DNA of 64,000 bases from Eledone cirrhosa (Eukaryota). A model generated the notes under the pieces. That model was not told where the DNA came from. It saw nothing but the letters and a program-made list of their open reading frames with translations, and did no database searches. Position numbers and translations under genes: made by a program. Of the stretch, positions 5,487 to 29,227 are shown piece by piece (positions within the stretch are counted from its first letter, which is position 1; every line of letters starts with the position of its first letter). The DNA lies in assembly GCA_964016885.1 (NCBI GenBank), contig OZ024745.1, positions 98,208,001-98,272,000 on the forward strand, given 5' to 3'.

Positions 5487-5692
5487 CGTTTTTTGAAATA
5501 TCCACTTCTGCGTTTACAGATTGACTTTGTTAGTTTCAGAAGATCCCGTTAAGGATGAAAGCAGCGATTCTTCGCTTAAACTTTAATCTGTTATTTTAAT
5601 AAATATTTGCTCTACGGTTCTTATATATTTGATATATATTTATCCTTATCGAGCCCTCTTTGGATTTTAGTCTTCAAATTTATTATTATTAC

Positions 5693-6602
5693 TATATATA
5701 TATATATATATATATATATATATATATATATATATATATATATATGTATGTATGTATGTATGTATATAAATATATACATATATATATATATATATATATA
5801 TATATACATATATATATATATATGTATGTATATATATATATATATATATATATATATATATATGTATGTATGTATGTATGTATGTATATAAATATATACA
5901 TATATATATATATATATATATATACATATATATATATATATATATATATATATATATATATATATATATATATATATGTATGTATGTATGTATGTATATA
6001 TATATATATATATATATATATATATATATATATATATATGTGTGTGTGTGTGTATGTATGTATATATATACGTATGTATGTATATATATACGTATGTATG
6101 TATATATATATGTATGTATATATATATGTATGTATGTATATATATATGTATGTATATATATATATGTATGTATGTATATATATATATATATATATATATA
6201 TATATATATATATATATACATACATATATATATGTATATATATATATATATATATATATGTATGTATATATATGTATGTATATATATGTATGTATATATA
6301 TGTATGTATATATATGTATGTATGTATATATATGTATATATATATATGTATATATATATGTATATATATATATATGTATATATATATATATATATATGTA
6401 TATATATATATATATATATATATATATATATATGTATATATATATATATATATATATATATATATATATATGTATATATATATATATATATATATATATA
6501 TATATAAATGTATATATATATATATATATATATATATATATATATATAAATGTATATATATATATATATATATATATATATATATATATATATATATATA
6601 TA
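5693..6602. repeat. (TA)n/(TATG)n compound microsatellite, ~900 bp
   Basis: Direct reading. Confidence 0.97.
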
Positions 6603-7380
6603 TTAGACTGGTTATCTACGCACGTGGCTGACACATTTCAGCTCGCTACTATATTGTTATATAATGGATGATCGCATTTAAAGTCCATTAAAGGTTCTTG
6701 GCACTACCATTGTTACCATCGCTTTTCTCTAGCCATGGGGCTTGGAGACATGAACCGAATACTACCATTCTATTTTATATCAATGTGAACTGCTATTTCT
6801 AATAGCCATCTTTTCACCCCTTGATAATTTGTGTGTGAGACACGTTGGCTGGGTGCTTCTGACAGGAACTAAAAGATTGATCTTTTTTAGCTTCCCGTCC
6901 CCAAGTAAAATTTGTAAATCAGTGGATAGTTGAGAGATAGAGTCCTATCGGTTGCCAGTTGCTAATAGCTTTACCATGTCAGTCGTCACAAACAGTCATG
7001 GCCGGCATGGGCTGGTGTTTGGATTCTGTCGATCGATTGGTTATTGATTAGGCGATACCAGCTGATGAAGCCGCATAAGCCGATTGTGCATTGTTGCATA
7101 ATATATGCAGACAGATGGTGCAGTGCACCTTACTGCTGCATTAGTGCGGCAGAAACTCGAGTCCGGGAACCTTATAGGCACCCGTTTTACGTGTGTTGTG
7201 TTGAGGCAAATAACTATGTGTATACTCTGGTAATGTATCTTACATTGCCCATTGAGTGCGCTGAGATACAACCGGTACTGGCATTGTTAAATATGCTGGG
7301 TCCGTCAACCCTTATTATATATATATATATATATATATATATATATATATATATATATATATATATATATATATTATATA

Positions 7381-7598
7381 TAATGTATAATAAACAATAC
7401 AATATAATTACCTCATTTAAATTGCCTTGTCCGATGAACGAATGAGGACGTTTTTTGTATTCGTCTTATTCGAGAAACCTCTGGTAATGAGGTAATTATA
7501 TTGTATTGTTTATTATACATTAAATTTAGCTCTGGTACTTTATAGAGCACTCTTCACTTCTATGACTTTTTCAATTTTCAACGGAAACTTCAATACTT
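7381..7598 (+). mobile_element. Fold-back PLE-type mini-element with a hammerhead (7421-7496), inserted in (TA)n
   Basis: Inverted repeat 7381-7417/7486-7522. Hammerhead: stem I attgccttgt/atgaggtaat, core CCGATGA, stem II cgaatgaggacg/cgtcttattcg, GAAACC-tct-GGTA. Confidence 0.7.
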
Positions 7599-7667
7599 AT
7601 ATATATATATATATATTCCAACTCGTGTGGTCCTTCTCCACATTTTATAATTATATATATATATATA

Positions 7668-7850
7668 TCACCTTGATCACCTTGACTGACCAGTCTGTCG
7701 CGCGGCAATCGGCGCCGCTGGTCACAGCACGTCGTGCTGTATTAGCCATAAGATAACGCCATCTCACTGGCTGGGCGGGCAGGCCGGTACTCATTTCTGC
7801 AGCTGATTGCAAGCCCAATCAATGCTCTAACCACTAAGCCATGCACCTTC
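7668..7850 (-). mobile_element. Internally deleted tRNA-derived SINE, inverted relative to 8093-8362
   Basis: Reverse complement of the head and 3' half of the 8093-8362 copy. Confidence 0.8.
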
Positions 7851-8092
7851 ACACACACACACACACACACACACACACAAACACATATATATATATATAT
7901 ATATATATATATATATATATATATATATATATATATATATATATATATATGTTTATATATATATATATATATATATATATATATAAGTTTATATATATAT
8001 ATATATGTGTGTGTGTGTGTGTGTGTGTGTGTGTGTGTGTGTGTGTGTGTGTGTGTGTGTGTGTGTGTGTGTGTGTGTGTGTGTGTGTGTGA

Positions 8093-8362
8093 AGGCGCAT
8101 CATCGCTTAGTGGTTAGAGCATTGATTGGGCTTGCAATCGAAAGGTTGTGAGTTCAATTCTCGGACCGGGTGAAGTGTTGTTTCCTTGAGCCAGACACTT
8201 TATTTCACGTTGCTCCAGTTTACTCAGCTGTAGAAATGAGTACCGGCCTGCCCGCCCAGCCAGTGGGATGCCGTTATCTTATGGCTAAAACAGCACGACG
8301 TGCTGTGACCAGCGGCGCCGATTGCCGCCCGACTGACTGGTCGGTCAAGGTGATCAAGGTGA
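8093..8362 (+). mobile_element. tRNA-derived SINE with a CORE-like central domain
   Basis: A-box (gcttagtggttagagc), B-box (gagttcaattc), ccttgagccagacactt central block. Confidence 0.8.
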
Positions 8363-26620: not shown

Positions 26621-26744
26621 TGCAAGCCTTTATTAACTATTTAATTATATAGCCACGTGAACAAAGTACAGCTTGTTTTCTAGGACCAGATTTACGTCGA
26701 AACAAATGTTACATTATACAATTTTTTTAATTTGTATTACTCAA

Positions 26745-27325
26745 TAATAGTTTCTGATTTAGGCACAAGGCCAGCAATTACCCAGTGCATTACTGGTACT
26801 TTATTTTATCGTAAAGGGACGTAACTATGCTGGAAAGCATAGCGTCCGACCCTCCACCGATACTGCCAACCCACAGCCCTTTGTATTACTCAATAATAGT
26901 TTCTGATTTAGACACAAGGCCAGCAATTTTGAGGGAAGGGAAAATCGATTAAATCGACCCCAGTGCGTGACTGTTACTGTATTTTATCGACCCCGAAAGG
27001 ATGAAAGGCAAAGCTAACCTTGACGGGATTTGAACTCAGAACGTAAAGGCCCGTAACTATAAGCCACGAAGCAGGGTGTCCGACGCTCTACCGATATTGC
27101 CAATCCAACGTCCTTTATACTCAATAAAGATTTCTACTTTAGGCACAAAGCCAGCAATTTTTGGTCAGGGGAAAGTCGATTAAATCGACCCCAGTGCGTG
27201 ACTGTTACTGTATTTTATCGACCCCGTAAGGATGAAAGGCAAAGCTAACCTCGGCAAAGGGCCGTAGCTATATGCCGCGAAGCAGGGTGTCCGACCCTCT
27301 ACCGATACTGCCAATCCACCGCCCT
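26745..27325 (-). mobile_element. Three tandem SINE copies with differing internal deletions
   Basis: ctcaata..tttct..tttaggcacaaggccagcaatt...ccgac.ctctaccgatactgccaa repeated three times. Confidence 0.85.
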
Positions 27326-27597
27326 TGTGTTAGTCAATAATAAAAATTGTTGCAAATTGGTATTTTCCATGTTGCACTATACACAAATCAATAATTTGTT
27401 TAAACTACTTGCTACTATTCAGTTTTAAATAAATCATATTAAATATACATGTAGCCTGGGAGGATGTCTTTTGAAAAAATATAAACTCAATTTTTTAATA
27501 TTTCGAATTCAGCAAATTTTTCATCTTAATATCAGTTGGAGAATAAAATGATCAAGTGAACATATTTGATGAGCTGTGTCATCGATTTTAACCCGCT

Positions 27598-27738
27598 CCT
27601 ATACGTTAGCCCTACATATATACGTTAGCCCTACATACAAACGTTAGCGCCTACATATATATGTTGACCCCTACATATATATGTTGACCCGTACGTATAA
27701 ACGTTAGTCCTACATACACGTAAGTCCTACTTATATAT
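27598..27738. repeat. Minisatellite, ~20-bp unit, 6-7 copies
   Basis: tatacgttagccctacata variants. Confidence 0.8.
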
Positions 27739-28610
27739 GTAATATTATTTATCGTTCACTACGACGCTCCAGTAATCTTTGGTCGTTATCACTAAAACAA
27801 ACTAAAGAACTGTAAATATGAAAGAACAATGAGGTGGCAGAACAAAAGACATATAATTCAATAAAAGCCATGTATTTAGAAATGATTCCTCCACCACCCG
27901 GATTTAAATTTCTCCAGAGTTGAGTCAGCTTTAAATTTTTCCGGTATCGATATCTTTCATCGATAACATTTTTTTATTTTTTTTTTTTATTGCTTAGCAA
28001 TATTAGGATGAGGATGGGGGGAGGAATGACTGCACCGACGATGGTGTGTTGGTCCTCCAAACTGTTCGGTATAAAAGAGAAAACAACATGACTCGTACAT
28101 TACCCCCAGACCAGCGGCTTGTTCTGAATGATGAAAACAAAATGGAGTTTGTTAAGAGCATCCATTGGCTAGTCGGCGGTGTTCATGCTTTTCTTTTTCT
28201 TTCTTATTATTATTATTATGCCACATCGTGTCTGATGGCTAGCAATATGTGATGAACCGTTACGACATATATGTGTATGTATGTATGTACGTACGTACGT
28301 ATGTATGTATGTATGTATGTATGTATGTATGTATGTATGTATGTATGTATGTATGTATGTATGTATGTATGTATGTATGTTATGTATGTATGTTGTCACA
28401 TCTAGGTGTTTTGCCTGCATCCCTATCTCTTTTGTGAATCAGGTATTTTGTGTTGTATGTATGTATGTATGTATGTATGTATGTATGTATGTATGCATGT
28501 ATGTATGTATGTATGTATGTGTATGTATGTATGTATGTATGTATGTATGTATGTATGTATGTATGTATGTATGTACGTATGTGTATGTACGTATGTACGT
28601 ATGTGTATGA

Positions 28611-29012
28611 TGACCCCCTTAGCCTTTGTCAAGGCAGAATTCTAGGAGAAGGAAAACTCTGATATAACACCTGCAACCCTGATGGTATCCAATGATGTTG
28701 ACTTGTTCTTCTTTTTGGTAAATATCATCTTGGTTAAGAGAGTGAGACTGGCTTTGTGCAGTGCCTTTGCTCACTATAAAAGCTTCACGGCACAGGCATT
28801 GCTTTATATCTGGAGATCTCTCTGCACTTGTCGTCACATGGTACATCGGCCCAGCACTATGTGTCAATAATTGTCACAAGTGTAGTGTTTGTACCAGAGT
28901 TTTCATGTCGCAGGCTGGACTAAAAAGTCACACTCGTTCAGCGCATCGGTAGGGTTTCTCCTACATGGATATAAAGTAGTGGCCGTACTCGAAAACGAGT
29001 TGGCAGCCACCG
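28611..29012 (+). mobile_element. Non-autonomous RTE-derived element; longer inverted copy at ~45578-46172
   Basis: Near-identical in reverse to 45578-45980. The 3' part encodes a C2H2 finger (CSVCTRVFMSQAGLKSHTRSAH) like the RTE end at 41980-42065. Confidence 0.75.
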
Positions 29013-29077
29013 TGTGTATGTATATATATATATATATATATATATATATATATATATATATATATAAATATATATTT

Positions 29078-29227
29078 ATTTATTAAAATAACAGATTAAA
29101 GTTTAAGCAAAGAATCGCTGCTTTCACCCTTAACGGGATCTTCTTAACGGTTCTTATATATTTGATATATATTTATCCTTATCGAGCCCTCTTTGGATTT
29201 TAGTCTTCAAATTTATTATTATTACTA
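29078..29227. mobile_element. Minimal (~150 bp) PLE B-family remnant in (TA)n
   Basis: 29078-29144 matches 2392-2458, joined directly to the tail 5614-5693. Confidence 0.85.

Follow-up and report, generated by a model that had tools for sequence, protein, structure and literature searches.

The stretch analysed here is 64,000 nucleotides of the Eledone cirrhosa genome (GCA_964016885.1, contig OZ024745.1, positions 98,208,001 to 98,272,000, forward strand; hereafter the window), in which a short motif, TATN-GAGYNCTC, recurs in the tails of elements inserted at (TA)n tracts. We find that the motif is almost certainly one strand of a paired hairpin tied to the termini of Hydra-clade Penelope-like elements, and we argue that the hairpin probably marks where reverse transcription starts. 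A first-pass annotation of the window had listed eleven sites (5651, 29184, 7545, 8847, 9130, 10969, 11494, 14349, 14624, 14728 and 15746, with 10969, 14349, 14728 and 15746 on the minus strand), and their letters and coordinates were borne out by a direct check of the window. The proximity to (TA)n that it described holds at ten of the eleven, where a tract lies 27-68 nt past the motif end; 11494, as it also stated, has none. The literal motif is found at six sites (5651, 29184, 7545, 10969, 11494 and 15746), the entire window count, and the remaining five are variants; a further site, unlisted in that annotation, lies at 7254 on the plus strand. The eleven sites sort into eight repeat families and one orphan, with 5651 and 29184 sharing one family and 9130 and 10969 another. 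The orphan, 11494, returns only itself in a genome search and is probably a decayed member or a chance match. The features are as follows, with short and long terminus denoting the two fixed points at which copies end.

2389..5692, minus strand: family A Hydra-clade element, with short terminus at ~2389, 3′ untranslated region (UTR), 5′-truncated open reading frame (ORF) and inverted 3′ segment
5479-5692, plus strand: inverted 3′ segment of family A, ending at the long terminus; (TA)n flanks both sides of the element
3406..5477, minus strand: family A ORF for a reverse transcriptase (RT) with C-terminal GIY-YIG endonuclease, carrying RWR, SDKT, YRDD and CxCx5C
5532..5582, plus strand: putative ribozyme, a hammerhead-like motif with variant core CAGAAGA...GAAA (descriptor scan, stems read from sequence)
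Core starting at 2459, minus strand: second hammerhead-like copy of family A (descriptor scan)
5609..5658, plus strand: hairpin 1 of family A, with GCTC arm at 5609, 2-bp upper stem, TC bulge and GAGC at 5651
7224..7261, plus strand: additional hairpin, with ACTC arm, 3-bp upper stem, TT bulge and GAGT at 7254
7374..7597, plus strand: family D fold-back mini element, with hairpin 7529-7552 and long terminus 7597
8799..8893, plus strand: tail of a separate high-copy family, with hairpin 8799-8854, a 1-nt bulge and no TA ahead of the arm
9018..9164, plus strand: family B mini element, a degenerate copy, with hairpin 9108-9137
10925..11116, minus strand: family B fold-back mini element, with hairpin 10996 to 10969, long terminus 10925 and short terminus ~11116
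11469..11503, plus strand: orphan motif 11494, with arm ACAC for RCTC, no (TA)n, single copy; covariance model score 15.4 bits, E 0.36
14303..14455, minus strand: family H fold-back mini element, with hairpin 14372 to 14349 and a 1-nt bulge
14475..14670, plus strand: family C fold-back mini element, with hairpin 14609-14631 and long terminus 14670
14685..14830, minus strand: family I tail, with long-loop hairpin, arm at 14817 and GAGT at 14735-14732
15678..15842, minus strand: family E tail, with hairpin 15775 to 15746 and a 6-bp upper stem
29069..29225, plus strand: family A micro-insertion, an inverted short-terminus arm joined inside hairpin 1, so that the GCTC arm is lost and the 3′ strand (29184) alone is left

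Family A is represented by 114 scored genome copies at 96-98% identity, among 76,325 candidates; its ORF in the window corresponds to residues 19-633 of a 709-aa relative at 96%, with the last part (3406-3684) in another frame, and its hairpin 1 at 5609 begins 5 nt past the short terminus, with the long terminus at 5692. The additional hairpin at 7224..7261 lies 54 nt before the (TA)n at 7316 and is matched by the covariance model described below (18.4 bits, E 0.067). A tandem copy with a second hairpin and a Hydra ORF is found for family D at locus L090, and family I likewise has a second hairpin and a Hydra ORF at locus L111. The family H arm reads ATTC in the window copy and ACTC in four relatives, and family C carries a canonical hammerhead core, CTGATGA...GAAA, on the minus strand from 14535.

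The window mini elements are fold-backs that share the layout of family A; their inverted arms span a hammerhead-like motif and the tail occurs on one side. Enrichment was measured on a held-out set of 118 stretches of 10 kb (1.18 Mb of a 3.0 Gb genome), 20 of them beside the window and 98 spread across other contigs; hairpin counts given here rest on this 1.18 Mb and on targeted loci. In the held-out set, 25 of 40 TATN-GAGYNCTC matches lie 30-89 nt 5′ of (TA)≥6 and point toward the tract, where ~1 is expected from the 2.8% of strand-bases that these bins occupy, and the opposite orientation shows no peak. The proposed positional enrichment before (TA)n tracts is thus upheld. The non-homology claimed for the surroundings is upheld too: of the 253 pairwise comparisons between 23 family tails, 6 scored above every one of 100 shuffles, and 2 of these by a clear margin. 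A GAGCTC cluster ~24-38 nt before (TA)n proved to be the palindromic loop of the family B hammerhead and was set aside as separate from the motif.

In sequence terms, the motif supplies the 3′ strand of a bulged hairpin that is conserved between families and has the form RCUC-stem-loop-stem′-UN-GAGY. To keep the pairing test non-circular, matches were picked by their 3′ letters and distance alone, giving 105 matches in 22 clusters of the held-out set. A Watson-Crick arm with at least two upper pairs is present in 12 of the 22 cluster representatives; when the upstream regions were swapped 2000 times, the mean was 4.96 and the highest count 10. Scored as individual copies, 78 of 105 have this pairing. 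At sites far from (TA)n, 9 of 154 matches pair where 6.67 are expected (p 0.22). Held-out enrichment and the pairing test together reject chance as the origin of the motif.

An alignment of 15 short-loop families (A3) describes the pairing that the 22 clusters test, since its families were chosen for the hairpin; 104 of its 105 cells pair, 23 of them through double change. The pair at the base of the stem is A-U in 9 families and G-C in 6, and the pair above the bulge is U-A in 12 and C-G in 3; because the families are related, these changes are not independent events. Slid controls pair in 12-51% of cells, and RNAalifold returns the identical structure unprompted. CTC and GAG are invariant in 15/15 families and a C follows GAGY-N in 14/15. 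A3 leaves out the long-loop families and two rows misaligned in the alignment A2 (family H and hairpin 2 of family A). Two families have a 1-nt bulge and loops range from ~4 to 100 nt, and in a sequence-only alignment of the window sites the 5′ arms failed to line up. The quasi-palindrome that the first-pass annotation took as the main feature gives way to this pairing: GAGY pairs, with covariation, to the upstream RCTC, and the four bases that follow it vary (GCTT, ACTC, CCTC, ACCT, TCTT and, in one family, TTAA).

A covariance model built from A3 finds 8 of the 11 window sites at E below 0.4, together with a new match at 7216-7263, and has no match at that threshold at 8847, 14349 or the armless 29184. 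Across 98 loci, 67 of 78 matches of at least 20 bits, a set that includes the training families, sit 25-100 nt before (TA)n, compared with 7.6% of random positions, and matches here have a density of ~80 per Mb. Rfam 15 gave, for window positions 1-48000, only sub-threshold microRNA-like matches on fold-backs and microsatellites (among the best 150 of 305); a scan across both family B hairpins gave no match.

The motif-bearing elements are, by their protein sequences, Hydra-clade Penelope-like elements, not the Naiads that the first-pass annotation had named. This clade is defined by an RWK motif, DKT replacing DKG, a CxCX5C linker, absence of CCHH, CxxC and CxH around the endonuclease E and N, and a canonical hammerhead on the sense strand near the 3′ end, and Naiads by an N-terminal GIY-YIG endonuclease, a DKA motif and the lack of a canonical hammerhead (Craig et al. 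2021, PMC8557442, in the sections drawn on here). The ORFs of 709-719 aa linked to the motif have a single frame with YRDD and a C-terminal IY/VY...YIG, and RLRWR and SDKT are present in families A and B; the family A protein further contains CNCRNRVDC, CDLC and CKH, and that of family B CNCPDRSIC, CNLC and CKH. The assignment is made because the C-terminal GIY-YIG, RWR, DKT and CxCx5C match the clade definition, and it was read block by block against published Hydra proteins. Protein atlas neighbours of the ORFs bear GIY-YIG and RVT_1; Pfam and PDB sequence searches with the ORFs gave no RT or GIY-YIG match. As in the Hydra clade, the elements insert into (TA)n. They depart from Naiads in the C-terminal endonuclease, in DKT instead of DKA and in the canonical hammerhead cores of families C and D. 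Reading by eye the final ~600 nt of six Naiad consensus sequences, the cephalopod ones of Obim, Ovul, Omin and Esco and two others, showed no copy of the motif, though these ends may be short termini; the Obim and Ovul Naiads have GCTC..TT-GAGC without an upper stem ~190 nt in. Seven families are linked to ORFs, and their proteins are 37-58% identical over aligned parts while their tails do not align. The proposed conserved cis-signal common to many (TA)n-targeted mini-element families of one retroelement system stands, autonomous partners included.

Hammerhead-like cores are canonical in families C and D and read CAGAAGA in A; family B has no canonical core, with no CUGANGA found, and none was identified in family E. 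Three focused Rfam scans matched neither the hammerhead nor any other family. As a side observation, the non-canonical cores belong to two very abundant families, A and B, whose stems I-III are apparently intact (window 5537-5560 and 2459; loci L271 and L318). Locus L318 (G000:C1:91472500-91480500) is a head-to-tail family B array with a 3.54-kb period and open ORFs of 717-719 aa; a search for an RNA holder of family B listed none. Family E occurs as non-coding tandems of a ~610-bp unit in which both hairpins are kept (L042 7240-8020; L171-L174).

Copies of family A end at either of two fixed points ~90 nt apart, and in its tandem copies the tail continues into the 5′ leader. On the sense strand the order is ORF, 3′ UTR, hammerhead, short terminus, a TA-gap of 5-8 nt, hairpin 1 and long terminus, followed by a TA-gap of 6-8 nt, hairpin 2 and the next ATG. 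Hairpin 1 lies 27-75 nt from the long terminus in most families, and hairpin 2 roughly 20-80 nt ahead of the ATG in families A, B, D, F, G, I and J. The short-terminus gap was counted from junctions, which 12 families gave and 10 did not, and its mode is 5-8 nt in 8 of the 12: 5 nt in A (13/23 junctions), 8 in B (14/17), 7 in C (6/12), 7 in F (4/4), 6 in H (2/4), 7 in I (3/4), 8 in K (1/1) and 8 in N (2/5). Hairpin 2 begins 6-8 nt past the long terminus in all 7 families whose continuation was mapped (A, B, D, E, F, G and I). In family E, 9 of 30 loci run past the long terminus, all alike; in family F the basal stem of hairpin 2 is intact, by eye, in 11 of 20 copies; family J has two hairpins and unmapped termini. 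As the gaps mostly start with TA, they would give a 2-5 nt overlap with the target.

Hairpin 2 of family B was predicted before any tandem had been seen. A search for TAT-N(1-6)-CTC after the long terminus gave 341 genome matches, and 0 for the reversed control; 91 of the first 100 listed share a 6-nt gap and GCTC. All 11 inspected copies close the hairpin, which is also the RNAfold minimum-energy fold, and the two family B hairpins differ by compensatory changes (ACTC/GAGT and GCTC/GAGC).

The two termini are also paired in insertion. Where both arms of a head-to-head insertion reach (TA)n, one end is short and the other long in 31/31 cases of the unbiased set and window and in 5/5 of the ORF-selected loci. 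No short-short or long-long pair is found among the 36, and one short and one long end is thus a strict rule in this sample. Unpaired ends are near equal in the five families with pairs (34 short, 32 long). A tail at one end only is frequent in Penelope-like elements (PMC8557442, in part).

We also recorded the 5′ breakpoints of long-terminus copies (families A-G, loci L041-L158 and the window; 2 edge matches dropped, and the references for C and F short upstream). Of these, 33/81 sit 50-75 nt before the short terminus, inside the hammerhead, and 16/81 within -10 to +20 of it; in family B, 17/26 are at -51 to -62.

Beyond this genome, six Hydra consensus sequences (File S7 of Craig et al., PMC8557442) were read by eye. 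Hydra-2_Amil, from a coral, and Hydra-2_Ajap each have one perfect hairpin in the tail, Hydra-1_Ajap, from a sea cucumber, has two at its 5′ end, and Hydra-1_Amil has an imperfect one. (TA)n is likewise the target of a Neptune-type family of this genome, whose two termini, separated by ~60 nt, are each followed by TATC; in 9 loci of this one family no model match occurs at the termini, and the family may use a different start signal. At the Neptune-type loci L339, L342 and L343, around 1455-1570, TATCG follows both termini and the ORF has long Asn/Thr/His-rich inserts.

For the role of the hairpin we favour, with a probability of about 0.65 and judging from sequence, a model in which each hairpin binds the RT of the element and directs initiation to the UA that lies a few bases to its 5′ side. 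We infer this function from the position of the hairpins. The hairpin would act as RNA within a read-through (tandem) transcript, and the nicked (TA)n target end would pair with the UA(U) of the gap that immediately precedes the stem. Because a hairpin is located 3′ of its start, it would not be copied from its own start site and therefore could not act from that complementary DNA (cDNA). A protein dimer would prime one target strand at each hairpin, one enzyme unit per hairpin, and with one hairpin per target strand the product would be a fold-back insertion bearing its tail on a single side. Retention of both hairpins would suffice for an RNA to be mobilised in trans, which would account for the many mini-element families.

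A precedent is the Poseidon element of a lizard: its tail is bounded by two internal sites at which reverse transcription begins, the two target strands are each cut and extended, RNA on the 3′ side of the starts is required and a dimer has been modelled (Frangieh et al. 2024, PMC11167929, in the parts drawn on). By extension, and at a little short of even odds, we suggest that Hydra-clade elements integrate by programmed twin priming, in which a dimeric telomerase-related RT uses two ~20-nt bulged hairpins as start marks and primes both target strands from one transcript. On this reading the hairpin would be a portable signal, conserved between corals and this genome, able to launch target-primed reverse transcription of whatever RNA lies on its 5′ side. 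It would also be the first RNA recognition element defined for a Penelope-like element with an endonuclease.

Several points weigh against these proposals. The supporting biochemistry comes from another clade. Single copies fold weakly, with z below -2 in 1 of 9 segments, and single-sequence folding is therefore not discriminating; the 10969, 14349 and 11494 segments do not fold as drawn, and the folded 14728 segment is too short to hold its arm. Evidence for the strand is thin: the majority pair at one position is G-U in 4 families and A-C in 1, and recurring minority pair types are 11 G-U and 8 A-C. Spacing fits poorly in 4 of the 12 families (D scattered, D2 3 nt, G a tie of 7 and 13, Q 13), and the 8847 family lacks a TA ahead of its arm. 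The second hairpin of family G is present in only 1 of 4 fetched matches, and prospective searches for one gave 0 matches in family H and, in family C, 19 matches with no recurring continuation; these two families may lack tandem copies. Among the consensus sequences, the two hairpins of Hydra-1_Crog, from a copepod, have the same shape and changed letters, and none was seen by eye in Hydra-1_Obim.

An unlikely alternative to start-site marking is that the GIY-YIG endonuclease recognises the inverted repeat in a DNA intermediate of the element and cuts the TA 5′ of it, yielding the two termini. Craig et al. attribute the tail to endonuclease-mediated resolution (PMC8557442, in part), and earlier Drosophila work found the tail to be needed for endonuclease recognition (cited in PMC11167929, in part); the enzyme target is TA, as are most gaps, and the invariant CTC/GAG would suit such recognition. 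However, lizard genomic ends coincide with reverse-transcription start sites (PMC11167929, in part), and loops of such variable length together with a conserved one-sided bulge fit a folded single strand better than a duplex. We consider it rather improbable that the hairpins instead serve transcription or translation, as internal promoter or leader structure, with termini set by nearby TA microhomology alone. The place of hairpin 2 shortly ahead of the ATG, the resemblance of the family F gap to a TATA box and the promoters known in the pseudo-LTRs (pLTRs) of Penelope-like elements (PMC8557442, PMC3846280, both in part) speak for it, but AT-rich regions offer many TA sites and yet the ends cluster 5-8 nt before the stem, the hairpins are kept in the non-coding tandems of family E, and the 36/36 short and long pairs are left unexplained. 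Lower still we place a packaging signal that only recruits the protein to its RNA, with terminus spacing a by-product of shared ancestry: all families are of one clade and their layout is partly inherited, but the 5-8 nt spacing is kept at two sites with different letters in one element (family B) and while the surroundings have diverged. The reading of GAGYRCTC as a quasi-palindromic Naiad site, serving dimerisation or recognition by protein, is very improbable, since the ORFs are of Hydra type and the second half often breaks the palindrome (GCTT being commonest) with pairing to the upstream arm kept, even though GAGYRCTC is self-complementary in several families, with a peak 40-49 nt from (TA)n, and the C after GAGY-N suggests some constraint past the stem.

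The elements, the hammerhead and the tail are already known, and the twin hairpin is the part that appears to be new. Two better-known systems offer analogies only. In L1 twin priming, a second-strand nick primes internally and produces inversions, occasionally and at variable sites; here both sites are fixed. The epsilon element of hepadnaviruses is a bulged stem-loop that recruits the reverse transcriptase and fixes the start, templating protein priming from its bulge, whereas the priming proposed here is by target DNA outside the hairpin. The present elements resemble the published Hydra clade in the order of their domains, in the RWK/DKT/CxCX5C motifs, in a hammerhead or hammerhead-like motif near the 3′ end, and in (TA)n targets, pLTR tandems, an inverted truncated copy and a one-sided tail, and differ from it in tails of ~60-110 nt, not 30-40, and in the non-canonical hammerhead cores of families A and B (PMC8557442, in part). 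On the proposed model they would share with Poseidon of Anolis carolinensis two start sites past the hammerhead that bound the tail, extension of both target strands, the need for RNA 3′ of the starts and a predicted dimer; Poseidon initiates in an AC-rich stem loop with no homology to the cut DNA, and the parts of that paper drawn on give no repeated signal and no rule tying each site to one strand (PMC11167929). Unlike in Poseidon, which belongs to another clade, a separate conserved hairpin accompanies each terminus here, together with 2-5 nt of TA microhomology. An RNA fold depicted in Fig. S2C of Frangieh et al. may be relevant to the comparison. Family E is like the non-LTR retrozymes, non-autonomous hammerhead tandems derived from Penelope-like elements, in its non-coding ~610-bp tandems and its dependence on a Penelope-like partner, and unlike them in keeping the hairpin pair and in its hammerhead, for which no canonical core was identified (bioRxiv 10.64898/2026.07.22.740005, in part). 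The main text of Craig et al. 2021 (PMC8557442), as far as drawn on, does not mention hairpin, stem-loop, bulge or twin, and term searches of parts of Arkhipova 2013 (PMC3846280) and Cervera 2014 (PMC4209133) found no description of the hairpin; nor was one found in the rest of the literature searched, a scope that took in few subscription papers and no Repbase notes.

For two decades, accounts of Penelope-like insertions have noted their fold-back structure and one-sided tail, and the biochemistry published in 2024 linked that tail to two internal starts without finding an RNA signal. The hairpin is a concrete 20-nt candidate for that signal, present twice per element and accompanied by a spacing rule and a one-short-one-long rule, which makes the mechanism testable. 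It is also an annotation marker, as its ~80 model matches per Mb assign dozens of mini-element families, otherwise unalignable, to a single clade. Because the enzymes are the closest mobile relatives of telomerase, the choice of start site bears on telomerase origins.

The window holds further elements of note. At 22268-22888 lies a family A fold-back whose tail is broken by ~340 bp of GC-rich foreign sequence replacing most of hairpin 1. At 34820-35400 a family A short-terminus arm is joined to a GC-rich fragment, a possible cargo capture; in a minus-strand frame this fragment resembles the C-terminus of a restriction-like-endonuclease non-LTR element. A further Hydra-like element is represented by its 3′ part at positions 1-2336; it has a canonical hammerhead at 2253 and ends at (TA)n without the motif, probably at a short terminus. 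Other fold-back or inverted-repeat elements without the motif, flanked by (TA)n or other microsatellites, lie at 7663-7840, 8090-8362, 9540-9760 and 13680-14280. Two ORF fragments (293 and 187 aa) at 12031-13584 on the minus strand look like a broken DNA transposase and have no Pfam match. Two inverted, broken copies of a non-LTR retrotransposon are found at 30394-33820 (minus) and 37763-41058 (plus), and 15985-17825 is occupied by ~16 tandem units of ~100-120 bp, in each of which an inverted-repeat pair surrounds a (TA)n of variable length.

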